Shown here: piece by piece, positions 9,398 to 14,617 of the stretch
How the letters are laid out: every line of letters begins with the position of its first letter
Numbering within the stretch: position 1 is the first letter of the stretch
Assembly (NCBI GenBank): GCA_008080745.1
Contig: SHMX01000001.1
Span: 60,001 to 92,000, forward strand
DNA length: 32,000 nt
Source: Candidatus Thorarchaeota archaeon
GTDB lineage: Archaea > Asgardarchaeota > Thorarchaeia > Thorarchaeales > Thorarchaeaceae
Direction of reading: 5' to 3'
Made by a program: the position numbers and the translations under genes
The notes under the pieces: model-generated
What the model saw: the letters and a program-made list of their open reading frames with translations, nothing else
Told to the model about the DNA's origin: nothing
Database searches by the model: none

Positions 9398-10513
9398 ATG
9401 CCGAGTGCAGTCTTTCTAATTCATCTGGATGAAAATCATGGATTTATACTAAAAAAACGACATCCCATCTCATTAAAGGTAACAGAAGCAGACTTGAATA
9501 ATATCTATGTACCCCATGCAGAAAAGGCAGGACTTCATGTCATTGAGTTAGATGACACCCAGATATTATCCTATTCAAAGAATAAAATGCCTGAATGGGT
9601 TGTATGCTTTGAGATGGAAGCAGATGATGATATCAGCTTTGAGAGTTCGCGACTTGAAGGTACTGCAAGATTACTACTGGAACTTGCTGAAACTTCTATT
9701 GATGATATTGATCTTGAAGAAATAATGAAATCTGGAAGTAGCTTGTCTGAAGAGAGTGCAGAACAAAAATTTGCAGGAGTGTTTCTAACCCCCTCAGCAC
9801 CACTTATTCTTGAGCACCTGCAAAGTGCAGAGATTTCAGGATTTGTTTCATCTGCTGCCCTTTCCATGTGGCTAAAAAAGCAGGTTGGAGGAGAAGGAAC
9901 AAATGTGGCTGAAGCAATTAGGCCTCTGATAACCTCTGGCTTGGTAAAAATGGAAATGCTAACAAAGACAAAACAATTTGTCTTCTTGGTCAAGGATGTT
10001 TTCGGTCACAGAGCATCACCAAATGACAGTCTCAAGCTAGCAGAAATGACGAGACCTGATATCTATGAAGAATATAAGGAGCAAGTCGAAAATTTCTTTG
10101 GTGCTGATTCTTCTGGAAGAGGATATAATCCAACAATCATGGAGGAGGAAGAGATGCAGACTATGATTGAAGACAGAGAAAAAGTTGCAGTAAATGTAGC
10201 AAACATAATTCATTACAATGTTATTACTGCACTGCGAAAAGGTCCAATGACACTGGACGAGATTATTATTCAAACCGCATTTCCAAAATCAATTGTACAA
10301 AAGGCTTTGTGGGCATTAAAGTCAAATAGCATCGTTACTTCTTTTGAGGAAGAATCGATATGGGCACTTCTAACAGATCCGGTCTTTGAAAGCTTCATGC
10401 CGAAATATGTGCTTGAGGGAATTTCCAAAAAATGGAACACAAAGGAAGCTGATTCTGCAGAGGTTCAGATGTACTTAGATTTACTCATTAACACTTGGAG
10501 AACAACATCATGA
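9398..10513 (+). CDS. Putative longin/uDENN-like domain protein with winged-helix domains
   Basis: The N-terminus AVFLIHLDENHGFILKKRHP...QILSYS...VVCF resembles uDENN starts (hhhhxFDxxxGPxhxxxYP). Two wHTH-like segments: LILEHLQ...AIRPLITSGLVK and ALRKGPMTLDEIIIQTAFPKSIVQKALWALKSNSIV. Translationally coupled (ATGA) to the GTPase gene. Confidence 0.6.
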   Translation: MPSAVFLIHLDENHGFILKKRHPISLKVTEADLNNIYVPHAEKAGLHVIELDDTQILSYSKNKMPEWVVCFEMEADDDISFESSRLEGTARLLLELAETSIDDIDLEEIMKSGSSLSEESAEQKFAGVFLTPSAPLILEHLQSAEISGFVSSAALSMWLKKQVGGEGTNVAEAIRPLITSGLVKMEMLTKTKQFVFLVKDVFGHRASPNDSLKLAEMTRPDIYEEYKEQVENFFGADSSGRGYNPTIMEEEEMQTMIEDREKVAVNVANIIHYNVITALRKGPMTLDEIIIQTAFPKSIVQKALWALKSNSIVTSFEEESIWALLTDPVFESFMPKYVLEGISKKWNTKEADSAEVQMYLDLLINTWRTTS

Positions 10514-11355
10514 TTCGGGGTATTTACATACTCGGAGAACAAAACAATATACTCTATTCGAAAGAATATGCAAAAAGTGACGCTAGAGCTACTTTAATCG
10601 AATTTCTAGTTAATCTTTCACAATTTCTAAAATCCGTGGATATTGAAAAGACCGAATACATGAATCTTTCAGTTTCTAGACTGTTCTATTCAAAACGGGG
10701 AAACTTTACATTCATTTCTCTTGCAGATAAAGCAGATGAGCCATCTCAGATTGAAGAAAAAACAGATCAGCTCATTGATATATTCATGAAGGATTATGCT
10801 AACTTGGCTCTTGCTGGTCAACCGCTCGATGATTTTGGAGACAAAGTAGACGAGATTGCTGTCACAATGGTCAAGGTAGCCATATTGGGTTTTGCGGGAG
10901 TTGGAAAAACTACTACGCTTCATCTTCTACGAGGGGAAACCCTTCCACTCGTTCATGACCCAACTATTGGAGTATCAATCAAGAAACTCCCCGAAGAGGT
11001 GCAATCCGCGAATATTGTTTTATGGGATCTTGCAGGACAAGCAAGATTTAGTATTCTTTGGTCAAAAATGATTGCAAATGCACAGGTTGTAATTCTTGTT
11101 ACTGATAGCACATTGGAGAATGTACTACGGAGTAAGAAGCTGGTAGCCTTAGTGAAGGAAGAGGTGCCAAACGCCCAAGTCATTGGTATCGCCAACAAAC
11201 AGGATCTTCCTACCGCACTAACACCTGAAAGAGTCGGGCAGATACTTGGGGTTCCAACTTATGAATTGGTGGCTATTGATATATCCTATCGAGACCGACT
11301 TGTGCAATTGATTAGAAGGGCAATTCTTGAAGGAAAAACCTCCGATAAGTCTTAG
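10510..11355 (+). CDS. Longin-domain / small GTPase (Arf/Rab-like) fusion
   Basis: G1 GFAGVGKTT, G2 PTIG, G3 WDLAGQ, G4 NKQD. The N-terminal about 115 aa (MIRGIYILGEQNNILYSKEY...LFYSKRGNFTFISLAD) follows the sigma-adaptin/SRX-type longin pattern. Start moved to ATG 10510, overlapping the upstream TGA. Confidence 0.9.
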   Translation: MIRGIYILGEQNNILYSKEYAKSDARATLIEFLVNLSQFLKSVDIEKTEYMNLSVSRLFYSKRGNFTFISLADKADEPSQIEEKTDQLIDIFMKDYANLALAGQPLDDFGDKVDEIAVTMVKVAILGFAGVGKTTTLHLLRGETLPLVHDPTIGVSIKKLPEEVQSANIVLWDLAGQARFSILWSKMIANAQVVILVTDSTLENVLRSKKLVALVKEEVPNAQVIGIANKQDLPTALTPERVGQILGVPTYELVAIDISYRDRLVQLIRRAILEGKTSDKS

Positions 11356-11560: not shown

Positions 11561-12196
11561 ATGTCTTTCGATTTTTCCGAGATACAGCGGCAGATGGAGG
11601 AACTCAATGGAAAACTCCAGGCGATTAAGGCTTTTGCAGAGAAAGTAGCAGAAACAAAACGGTTAGCAGATACACTTGCTGCCAACTTTGCAAGAATGAA
11701 GACTGAGATTAATCAGACTATTAACAAGTCATTTGCAGAAATTGCAGATCAAATCGAAGAGCTCAGAAAAAATATGGAACAGATGGAATCGGTACAAGTG
11801 ACTGAGAAAAGTGTTGAATCAACACCGACACCAGCTCCAAAGCCGGAACCAAAACCAGAACCTGAGCCGGAGCCAGAACCAAAGCCGGAGCCCAAGCCGG
11901 AACCAAAACCAGAACCTGAGCCGGAGCCAGAACCAAAACCTGAGCCCAAGCCGGAGCCAGAACCTGTACCAAAGCCAGAACCAAAACCTGAGCCCGAGGA
12001 ACCAGAACCCGTAGAGGGTGATGATGCTCAAAAGCAATTCTTGGAGCAACAGAGAGACAAACTCAAAGCTCAGCTTACGGATCTTCGTTTTGATTACATG
12101 AGAGGGTACATTCCTGAGGATGAATACAAGGCAAAAGAGGCTGAACTTGATTCAGAACTGGCAGAGCTTGAAAAGCGACTCAGCGAGCTTGGTTAA
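11561..12196 (+). CDS. Coiled-coil protein with Pro/Glu/Lys (PEPK) repeat linker and C-terminal SHOCT-like domain
   Basis: N-terminal heptads, a central (PEPK/PEPE)n tract, and C-terminal [29 protein letters not shown] matching the SHOCT pattern (LxxL...GxIxEEEFxxxKxxL). AGGTGA precedes the ATG. Confidence 0.8.
11831..12010 (+). repeat. Coding low-complexity tandem repeat (PEPK/PEPE) with an exact 44-bp duplication at 54-bp period
   Basis: AAGCCGGAACCAAAACCAGAACCTGAGCCGGAGCCAGAACCAAA occurs at 11840-11883 and 11894-11937. Confidence 0.9.
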
Positions 12197-12324: not shown

Positions 12325-13200
12325 TCATTCAAGAGCCTTTTTAGCTGCCGCGATGTATTTCTTGGCAGTTGCCAATCCAACACCATCAACCTTGTCAGAT
12401 AATTTTTCTGGATCTTCTCTGGAAAGGTTTAGAACCGTCTTGATACCAGCCTCACGAAGTTTCTCTTCCATAGCGGGACCAATTCCTGAAATATCGGACA
12501 ATTTTGGTTTTGGTTTCTTCTTAGCTGGTTTTTTAACCTCTTTCTTAGGTTCTTCCTTCTTGGGCTCTGCTTTCTTTGGAGCTTTCTTAGGTTCTTCTTT
12601 CTTGGGCTCTTCCTTCTTTGGAGCTTTCTTAGGTTCTTCTTTCTTTGGTTTCTTCTTAGGAGCTTCTTTGGGTTTTTCGCTCTTTGGTTCTTTCTCTTCT
12701 TCTTCTTCTTCTTCGAGAGGTTCTACAACCACTTCAGGTCGAGAGTCTTTACGCTCTTTCTTAGCTCCTGCTTCACGACGTTTTCTTTTTAGCTTACTAG
12801 GTTTGACGGAAGTAGGTGCAGCAGCTGCAGCAAGAGCAGCTTCCATCTCTTCAGTAGCAATTGGTTCTGATGGAACAGAGGAGGCAACTTCTTCGAGAAC
12901 ATCTGAAATCATAATTGGCTTTCCCTTCTCTCGTTTTTCCATCTCAGAAGGGGTAGTATATACAACAAAACCGCTCTCACGGATATATGGAACAATAATA
13001 CCTTCTTCTTCCTTCTCCCGTAATATCTTACGTGCAACACTCATACGGATATTGAACTTATTGGCTAAATCATAGGGTGTTACTGAAGATGCCTTAACAA
13101 GATAATCATCAATCTCTTTCAATACTTCTTTTTTGGGAATGGCTTCGCGTATGACTTTCTCAGTCTTTGTCGTCGATCTTCCCCATTTCTTTCGTGACAT
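12325..13200 (-). CDS. rps25e: Ribosomal protein eS25 with a long Lys/Glu/Pro-rich linker and C-terminal helix-hairpin-helix domain
   Basis: KKWGR...SVTPYDLANKFNIRMSVARKILREKEEEGIIVPY...VVYTT matches eS25 (KKWSK...ITP..VSERLKI..SLAR..L.EL...G.IK.V......IYTR). The C-terminal LSDISGIGPAMEEKLREAGIKTV...VDGVGLATAKKYI is a tandem HhH. Confidence 0.85.
   Translation of the reverse strand: MSRKKWGRSTTKTEKVIREAIPKKEVLKEIDDYLVKASSVTPYDLANKFNIRMSVARKILREKEEEGIIVPYIRESGFVVYTTPSEMEKREKGKPIMISDVLEEVASSVPSEPIATEEMEAALAAAAAPTSVKPSKLKRKRREAGAKKERKDSRPEVVVEPLEEEEEEEKEPKSEKPKEAPKKKPKKEEPKKAPKKEEPKKEEPKKAPKKAEPKKEEPKKEVKKPAKKKPKPKLSDISGIGPAMEEKLREAGIKTVLNLSREDPEKLSDKVDGVGLATAKKYIAAAKKALE
12500..12720 (-). repeat. 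Coding low-complexity repeat (KKEEPKK/APKK) in the eS25 linker
   Basis: Recurring TTCTTAGGTTCTTC and TTCTTTGGAGCTTTCTTAGG units on the plus strand. Confidence 0.8.
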
Positions 13201-13330
13201 TGTTAGAGCTCAGCTCCTAGGTATTTGACGTGAGTCATCGCAACTCTCTGAGTTTGGCTTAAAAAGATAATCATTGCACTACTCTAAGAGGTACACGAAA
13301 GTCTACCTTTTTTTCACAGAATCTGGTTTG

Positions 13331-14617
13331 TTATTTCTCTAATTCTAAAGGTTCAACAGTGATGGTTTGTACATGTGAAACTTTACTCCTCTCAGGAATA
13401 TCTCGATTGATAACACATCCAGGGTCTATGATAGTACCTTCACCAATTCGAGTAGCAGGATATATTGATGTATTGACTCCAATAATCACATGATCACCGA
13501 TCATTGCACCCATCTTGGTTAGGGGAACACGAATTTTTTCATCACCATCCGTTAGATAGAGTGTTTCACCCGATGGTCGCCAATTCCATAATTGTGCACC
13601 AGCTTCAATACAAGTATCGGACCCGACAATTGAATCGGCTAGATAAGTCATCCTTCCAATATTTACGCGCTCAAAAACCATGCTGTTTCGTAATTCTACC
13701 GAGTAACCTATATGTACACCATCGGATAAGCTCGAATATTCTCTGACAAGAGAATTATTCCCAACATAAACACGCTTACCGATATGCACAGGGCCTCGAA
13801 TAGTTGTCCCAGGTCTTATTATGCTACCTTCATCAATAAAAACAGGTCCTTCAAGAACCACATTTTTATGAATTTCTGCGGACTCGGCGATAAAACTGCC
13901 ATATCCACGAAGCTTGCGATCAAGTACAATCTGGTTTGCCTTGAGAATGTCCCAGGGCCAAGTAAACTCCGCCCATTCCTTTTCCCATACTGCTGCTGCG
14001 ACGGTCTTATTTGTTTCAATCATCTTTTCTATAGTCTTTTCCATAGTACCATATTTTTCTAATAGTTCTAAGATCTCAGTCTTGAATACGGACACACCCG
14101 CAACTGCATAATTGCTAACATATCTATCAGGACCGCCTTTTTCCACTAATCGTTCAACAACACCATTTCGTCCAATTTTTACTGTACCAAACTGTTGCGG
14201 ATTAGAAACAAGTGTGACTAACATGGTAACGTCAGCATTCATTGTATTATGATTATTGAGCGTTCGAGTAACCATATCAGGTTCAACAAGCACGTCGCCA
14301 TTAACCAATAGAAATTCTTCTTCGTTCTCTAAATCGTTGTATGCAGATAATATCGCATGTTCGACACCTTTCTGCTCGTGTTGAATTACATATCGAATGC
14401 TAATATCTTGGTCTGCGCCCATATCAAAATAATCTATAATCTCCTCGCGTCCATGACCCACTACAACAACTAGCTCGTGAATGTCATTTTCTTTCAAGCT
14501 TTCAATAATATATTGTAGTACCGGTTGCCCAGCAATCATCAACATTGCCTTAGATCTATTTGAGGTAAGTGGCATAAGTCGTCTGCCCTTACCTGCTGTA
14601 AGTACGAGCGCTTTCAT
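13331..14617 (-). CDS. glmU: Archaeal bifunctional sugar-1-phosphate nucleotidyltransferase/acetyltransferase (GlmU-like)
   Basis: N-terminal KALVLTAGKGRRLMPLT..RSKAML, then QHEQKG, VNGD and VEK motifs. C-terminal hexapeptide (left-handed beta-helix) repeats including GAMIGDHVIIGVN. Confidence 0.85.
   Translation of the reverse strand: MKALVLTAGKGRRLMPLTSNRSKAMLMIAGQPVLQYIIESLKENDIHELVVVVGHGREEIIDYFDMGADQDISIRYVIQHEQKGVEHAILSAYNDLENEEEFLLVNGDVLVEPDMVTRTLNNHNTMNADVTMLVTLVSNPQQFGTVKIGRNGVVERLVEKGGPDRYVSNYAVAGVSVFKTEILELLEKYGTMEKTIEKMIETNKTVAAAVWEKEWAEFTWPWDILKANQIVLDRKLRGYGSFIAESAEIHKNVVLEGPVFIDEGSIIRPGTTIRGPVHIGKRVYVGNNSLVREYSSLSDGVHIGYSVELRNSMVFERVNIGRMTYLADSIVGSDTCIEAGAQLWNWRPSGETLYLTDGDEKIRVPLTKMGAMIGDHVIIGVNTSIYPATRIGEGTIIDPGCVINRDIPERSKVSHVQTITVEPLELEK

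Follow-up and report, generated by a model that had tools for sequence, protein, structure and literature searches.

The window analysed here, a 32,000-nucleotide stretch of a Candidatus Thorarchaeota genome, carries on its minus strand a complete gene for the ribosomal protein eS25 (12325..13200), which runs as one uninterrupted 291-aa frame from an ATG at 13198-13200 to a TGA stop at 12325-12327. A Shine-Dalgarno-like GGAG is found 13 nt 5′ of the ATG (13214..13217, minus strand), and its CTAGGAG context is conserved across the orthologues of the family. The product is made up of four modules: a winged-helix core (aa 1-84; 12949..13200), a family-specific extension (aa 85-162; 12715..12948), a disordered polyampholyte spacer (aa 163-230; 12511..12714) and a tandem helix-hairpin-helix, or (HhH)2, module (aa 231-291; 12328..12510), all encoded on the minus strand. 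An eS25 core followed by a C-terminal HhH had been proposed in a sequence-only reading of this DNA, and both parts pass their Pfam cut-offs: Ribosomal_S25 (PF03297) matches aa 3-82 with 49.3 bits (cut-off 28.8) and HHH_5 (PF14520) matches aa 234-288 with 43.7 bits (cut-off 27). The interval assigned to the HhH in that reading (12328-12501) equals aa 234-291.

Is this the only eS25 that the organism has? A genome-wide profile scan gave the gene 53.8 bits for PF03297 and returned it as the sole match above the cut-off in the 3.16 Mb, 98% complete genome. The runner-up, an 81-aa ORF without the KKW motif, reached 16.5 bits and appears, when read by eye, to be a small winged-helix regulator. A second, canonical eS25 in the genome was rejected on the grounds that this match lies below the cut-off and does not contain KKW. 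On sequence grounds, the gene at 12325-13200 is the organism's eS25 orthologue.

The next gene upstream of eS25, also on the minus strand (13331-14617), encodes a protein with nucleotidyl-transferase and left-handed beta-helix domains, whose match to the eIF2B-epsilon LbH model is sub-threshold (50.5 bits against a cut-off of 54). On the other side, the plus strand encodes a 211-aa coiled-coil protein (11561-12196) with a central (EP/KP) repeat of about 65 aa similar to the TonB rod. The DNA behind it is a 54-nt tandem repeat (94% identical), and the protein gave only weak, sub-threshold CdvA-like and kinetochore-type coiled-coil matches. Further along the plus strand is a 286-aa protein of the Arf/Roc small GTPase type (10495-11355; aa 126-255, Arf 69 bits), in which an N-terminal domain of about 120 aa without a Pfam match precedes the GTPase; the protein may represent a small GTPase fusion of the Asgard type.

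A Canonical Core and a Family-Specific Extension

To our knowledge, eS25 is among the few ribosomal proteins restricted to eukaryotes, TACK and Asgard archaea. Its site on the small-subunit head is functionally sensitive. An AlphaFold2 model of the full-length Thor protein was built on 46 homologues, and the core, which was also delimited by Pfam, phmmer and Foldseek, is predicted with pLDDT above 90. It superimposes on the solved eS25 chains of S. solfataricus, P. calidifontis, yeast and human with an rmsd of 1.1-1.6 Å (Foldseek TM at least about 0.8, normalised on the target). In phmmer, aa 3-82 pair with residues 28-107 of the S. solfataricus chain 9fhl_c. The Thor core begins at KKW and lacks any equivalent of the N-terminal tail of S. 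solfataricus eS25 (9fhl_c), which is 27 residues long and contains a GG motif; in S. solfataricus this tail touches uS13, and eS25 itself is positioned on the 30S head (PMC11698992). The winged-helix core is thus common to the Thor protein and canonical eS25 (PF03297; 9fhl_c, 9e71_BW, yeast and human). Canonical eS25 is single-copy and sits on the 30S head, and Thor eS25 is likewise single-copy, with the same position expected (PMC11698992). The two differ in length, however, at 291 aa for Thor eS25 against about 95-125 aa for the canonical protein, and the additions are C-terminal: the conserved 78-aa extension, the spacer and the HhH.

The extension is predicted to form four helices and ends in PEVVVEPLE. 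Its motifs (PIM..DVLEEVASSVP, EEM..ALAAA, the basic VKPSKL.RKRRE and the terminal PEVVVEPLE) are present in 14/14 sampled genera of the window's Thor family (f1). In the alignment of eS25 homologues its occupancy is 100% and its top-residue frequency 0.59-0.84, equal to the core, and the AlphaFold2 model gives it a pLDDT of 71-91 as far as about aa 150, with lower values toward the spacer. All eS25 genes of the family retain both the extension and a charged tail. The single genome of the sister family f2 is missing the extension and has a K/S/T-rich tail instead. Pfam returned nothing for aa 85-162, and a look-up of aa 84-165 in the ESM Atlas gave no usable match. The linker of about 145 aa that the sequence-only reading had taken as low complexity throughout therefore has to be divided, since aa 85-162 are conserved and predicted to be helical and only aa 163-230 are of low complexity.

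A Disordered Spacer and a RadA-Type Cap

The 68-aa spacer is predicted to be disordered (pLDDT about 42) and consists largely of charged residues and proline, with 28 K+R, 20 D+E and 13 P. Within it, Tandem Repeats Finder identified a 42-nt tandem repeat (12540..12645; 2.5 copies, 95% identical) that codes for the spacer's 14-aa PKKEEPKKAPKKEE-type units. Across other genera the length of the spacer ranges from 24 to 99 aa. In one orthologue (L033, G224:C94) a run of about 102 N bases lies within the spacer repeat and shifts the frame of the HhH. A recent loss of the HhH in this genome was considered and rejected, as the module is found downstream of the assembly gap in another frame. The repeat-encoded linkers of these eS25 genes are prone to assembly gaps that can mimic domain loss.

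A KKPAKKKPKPK stretch precedes the HhH module, which was delimited by Pfam HHH_5, the model and structure search. Both hairpins are canonical (GIG at 239-241 and GVG at 273-275), and module positions G14, G16 and G48 are invariant among 29 aligned HhH modules. Such GhG hairpins are the nucleic-acid-contacting element of HhH motifs. (HhH)2 domains may also bind proteins, as do NusA AR2 and ERCC1-XPF. The module is predicted with pLDDT 93-97 in the full-length AlphaFold2 model and 86.8 when modelled alone. The nearest solved folds are the N-terminal domains of RadA (2bke, 2z43 and 1pzn), with TM 0.76-0.82, rmsd 1.1-1.5 Å and 36-43% identity; 2bke aligns with TM 0.81 and 1.3 Å at 36% identity, and 1pzn_A is 43% identical. 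DNA-bound repeats of Topo V (8df7_A), Rad51 N-terminal lobes and NusA AR2 follow as the next structural neighbours. The structure search thus agrees with the sequence-only reading, in which the module was likened to RadA N-termini and NusA acidic repeats. As modelled, the eS25 HhH has the five-helix (HhH)2 fold of the RadA N-terminal domain, and both its fold and its hairpin motifs are those of (HhH)2 domains that bind duplexes non-specifically.

These relatives differ from the Thor module in setting and charge. The (HhH)2 domains of RadA/Rad51 and Topo V are joined to recombinase or topoisomerase cores, whereas that of eS25 stands alone at the end of a disordered tether. NusA is a bacterial transcription-translation coupling factor, and its AR1 and AR2 have the (HhH)2 fold in common with eS25 (6ib8_C, TM 0.77; 8y5l_NA), but they are acidic and protein-binding. 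The 60-residue eS25 module is basic, with a net charge of +3 and a pI of 9.3, and is not an acidic repeat of the NusA kind; in the comparison with NusA AR, no homology beyond the fold was found. Charge varies within the family: of the two eS25 modules in g4 and g11, the first has an acidic pI of 4.2-4.7.

Distribution of Long eS25 and Its HhH

How widely the extension occurs, a point raised by the sequence-only reading, was addressed with an eS25 profile scan over 301 Asgard genomes. Among the matches listed outside the window's family, open frames are 85-178 aa long and mostly of the canonical 90-135 aa. Frames with an eS25 match in f1 are all 165-414 aa long; those at the short end are truncated by contig ends, and complete frames span 235-414 aa. 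The long form is therefore found in all matches of the family, and the HhH is patchy. Fifty eS25 genes were retrieved, 49 from f1 and one from f2, and the presence of the HhH was scored with an HMM made from this genome's own HhH modules. The C-terminus is complete in 44 f1 genes, the window's gene included, of which 17 carry the HhH in one or two copies and 27 do not. All genes of g1 (2/2), g3 (1/1), g4 (3/3), g11 (3/3), g13 (1/1), g15 (1/1) and g16 (1/1) carry it, with two modules in g4 and g11; it is present in 4/5 genes of g14 and 1/16 of g9, and in none from g2, g5, g6, g7 and g12.

The Same Module on Other Proteins

About 24 HHH_5 matches are present in this genome. Some fall on expected carriers (RadA and a paralogue, Hef, UvrC, ligase, PolX and others), and others on unusual hosts, where the Pfam-confirmed module is borne on a Lys-rich linker. 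The sequence-only reading had raised the possibility of the same HhH tail on other ribosomal proteins of this host, and it is indeed present on two: eL32 has two N-terminal modules, and eL13 has one at its C-terminus (29.5 bits; L024, G000:C1:385623-386096, minus strand). The remaining unusual hosts are Rpo6, with an N-terminal HHH_5 on a charged linker, subunit A of topoisomerase VI, with four N-terminal modules, and two HEAT-repeat proteins. A Rpo6-HhH protein in Thorarchaeota has been mentioned (PMC13257274). The modules of these sister fusions are 37-67% identical to that of eS25 and their Lys-rich linkers are alike. The host proteins differ, and the eS25 fusion is patchier than that of eL32.

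Open frames for eL32 are 247-453 aa long across 16/16 f1 genera, the one exception being a gene truncated at the end of its contig. When 21 genomes were examined, 20 eL32 genes were recovered and 18 carry the HhH, representing 11/13 genera. Between 0 and 4 copies are present on eL32, in loose correspondence with the number on eS25. Four tandem modules are found in L080 (G140, g13) and three in L076 (G027, g4); in G075 (g6) and G063 (g7), eL32 is without the HhH yet keeps a long N-terminal extension. Genomes of g1, g4, g11 and g13, with the HhH on eS25, contain 21-28 HHH_5 modules each, and those of g3 and g14, also with the HhH on eS25, just 13-15. The remaining Thor genomes contain 9-16, and nearly all other sampled Asgard genomes 2-16, with one at 20. 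In a genome of another family (G006, f7), eL13 and HHH_5 matches share one 178-aa frame (G006:C2:142732-143220, minus strand), and going by this frame the eL13-HhH fusion seems to be wider than the Thor family.

A ribosomal protein with a single HHH_5-type module on a charged, low-complexity linker is already known from haloarchaea, in eL32 (1s72_Y/1jj2_X; 9l94_Q). For H. marismortui L32e (1s72_Y) and 9l94_Q the alignment extends across HhH and eL32 core alike, and the haloarchaeal module can be aligned residue by residue with those of Thor eL32 and eS25. The haloarchaeal HhH is N-terminal, on a large-subunit protein, with an acidic linker, whereas that of Thor eS25 is C-terminal, on a small-subunit protein, with a K/E/P linker. 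Some solved 50S entries of H. marismortui contain a model of the eL32 core alone (chains of 142-143 residues of a 241-residue protein), so that the haloarchaeal precedent is silent on the target of the HhH. Since L32e carries the module, HhH-tagged ribosomal proteins are known already. The searchable literature describes neither an HhH-bearing eS25 nor the conserved extension of the Thor protein, and public annotations of the homologues read "helix-hairpin-helix domain-containing protein", "ribosomal protein S25", "histone H1/5" or "flap endonuclease-like nuclease".

Selection and Module History

The least saturated pair of genomes (G128/G233) has a dN/dS of 0.10 in the core and of 0.07-0.08 in its two HhH modules, and other within-genus pairs with computable values give 0.03-0.16 for the HhH. 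Judged by these substitution rates, the eS25 HhH is under purifying selection comparable to that on the core. A gene tree of core plus extension requires six changes of HhH presence, one of which is the G224 artefact. At least three are forced by supported branches, including those at G203 (g14) and G275 (g9), as read from the printed tree.

The eS25 modules do not group together in a tree of 61 HhH modules, which is of low resolution at 60 columns. Those of g11 are placed with the eL32 modules of g11, and those of g1 fall among the eL32 modules of other genera. A single origin of the eS25 modules was rejected by the AU test (p = 0.0006, delta lnL 86), on 60 columns and with the free tree seen beforehand. 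The eS25 module of this genome is 67% and 62% identical to its two eL32 modules at the protein level. Recent gene conversion between the two genes here was also rejected: the DNA is just 67% identical and has no long identical run, so any exchange of modules between eS25 and eL32 in this genome is old.

A Candidate Nucleic-Acid-Binding Arm on the Ribosome

A whole Asgard family has rebuilt eS25 with a private conserved extension, and many of its species add an HhH on a long leash. What might this appendage do? We lean slightly towards the view that spacer and HhH form a ribosome-anchored, non-specific nucleic-acid-binding arm in a four-module eS25. The long form would be incorporated into ribosomes, with its winged-helix core docked on the 30S head, and the 78-residue helical extension, which is fixed in the family, most likely adds contacts at the ribosome surface. 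The 68-residue K/E/P spacer, disordered as predicted and apt to change by repeat slippage, would let the RadA-N-terminal-type (HhH)2 cap sweep a large volume. The arm would then bind the sugar-phosphate backbone of duplex nucleic acid independently of sequence, and ribosomes would thereby be loosely held to DNA or structured RNA near sites of transcription. The appendage is one case of a lineage habit: modules of this kind on charged linkers have repeatedly been exchanged, duplicated and lost among hosts. A tethering role is suggested because the HhH is basic, its hairpins are conserved and the module is shared with DNA- and RNA-handling machines. Against it stand the acidic first modules of g4 and g11, which are less typical of DNA binders. 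As the HhH is missing from eS25 in 27/44 family genomes, its role would have to be dispensable or replaceable. Should the arms bind DNA, they would tie ribosomes physically to the chromosome, and a link of this kind would bear on how transcription and translation were organised in the lineage nearest to eukaryotes.

The sequence-only reading had pointed to transcription-translation coupling, whereby the arm would reach RNA polymerase or its DNA and couple the lead ribosome to transcription, perhaps via the HhH of Rpo6. Several features are compatible with this: Rpo6 of the same genome bears its N-terminal HHH_5 on a charged linker (cf. PMC13257274), eS25 lies on the 30S head (PMC11698992), the spacer of 68 aa could extend past the ribosome surface, and the NusA AR2 domains among the structural neighbours include 8y5l_NA from an E. 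coli coupling complex. However, the eS25 module differs from NusA AR in being basic, no specific interface is known, and the HhH-less eS25 genes of 27/44 family genomes would have to do without the bridge. The module also occurs on Topo VI-A, HEAT-repeat proteins and two large-subunit proteins, where a coupling role is not obvious. Nothing specific to coupling emerged from the analysis, and because the module is basic, present on 17/44 eS25 genes and fused also to Topo VI-A and HEAT-repeat proteins, a generic tether fits better than a dedicated RNA polymerase bridge. A dedicated coupling device therefore seems to us quite improbable, and coupling is a special case of the non-specific arm. We likewise attach little credence to a more sweeping proposal, in which, in a subset of Thorarchaeota, (HhH)2 hooks on the ribosome (eS25, eL32 and eL13), RNA polymerase (Rpo6) and Topo VI would hold all three machines on the chromosome in one DNA-anchored expression compartment. 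Were it true, a close relative of eukaryotes would have a protein-encoded organisation of coupled transcription and translation.

The HhH modules could also contact proteins, acting as a hub or as dimerising units that link ribosomes or factors, or driving condensates together with the spacer. (HhH)2 domains are known to mediate protein interactions, the structural neighbours include NusA AR2 in complex with SuhB (6ib8_C), acidic modules occur on some eS25 proteins, and the K/E/P composition of the spacer is like that of condensate-prone polyampholytes. We nevertheless regard this as unlikely, given that both GhG hairpins are conserved, that the closest folds are the DNA-binding N-terminal domains of RadA/Rad51 and the Topo V repeats, and that the gene context points to no partner. 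Similar doubt attaches to a tail that folds back to bind rRNA in cis and so stabilises it or aids 30S assembly. K-rich extensions of eukaryotic ribosomal proteins do stabilise rRNA or aid assembly, and the conserved aa 85-162, with their basic RKRRE motif, resemble an rRNA-contacting extension; basic tails of ribosomal proteins usually bind rRNA (PMC9932298). This would suit the extension but not the HhH: a module that is often missing, and that hangs on a disordered spacer whose length varies from 24 to 99 aa, does not resemble a fixed structural contact; the H. marismortui 50S entries with only the eL32 core modelled tell against it too. Finally, patchy distribution and a repeat-driven linker could be the marks of neutral accretion, with the HhH a functionless passenger, or of an assembly or gene-calling artefact, and the N gap of G224 shows that such regions assemble poorly. 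Yet the HhH has a dN/dS as low as that of the core and doubled modules are maintained in g4 and g11. An artefact is excluded, as 16 genomes assembled independently of one another have core, spacer and HhH in a single intact frame and a 17th, G224, is broken only by its N gap, and we give this last explanation as a whole hardly any weight.

Start Codons and Annotation of Thor eS25

In most f1 genomes (among L025-L074, e.g., L036, L045, L064 and L052) the eS25 frame opens 6-8 codons before SRKKW, and these frames hold no ATG, GTG or TTG ahead of that motif. Where the window's gene has its ATG, these orthologues have ATT or ATC after a conserved AGGAGA, and from this arrangement many f1 eS25 genes probably start at AUU or AUC. 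In several database entries the protein starts instead at the Met within RMSVAR, and some of these are named "flap endonuclease-1-like nuclease". Starts at ATT or ATC would account for public entries that begin at this internal Met, and eS25 may be under-called in Thor genomes.
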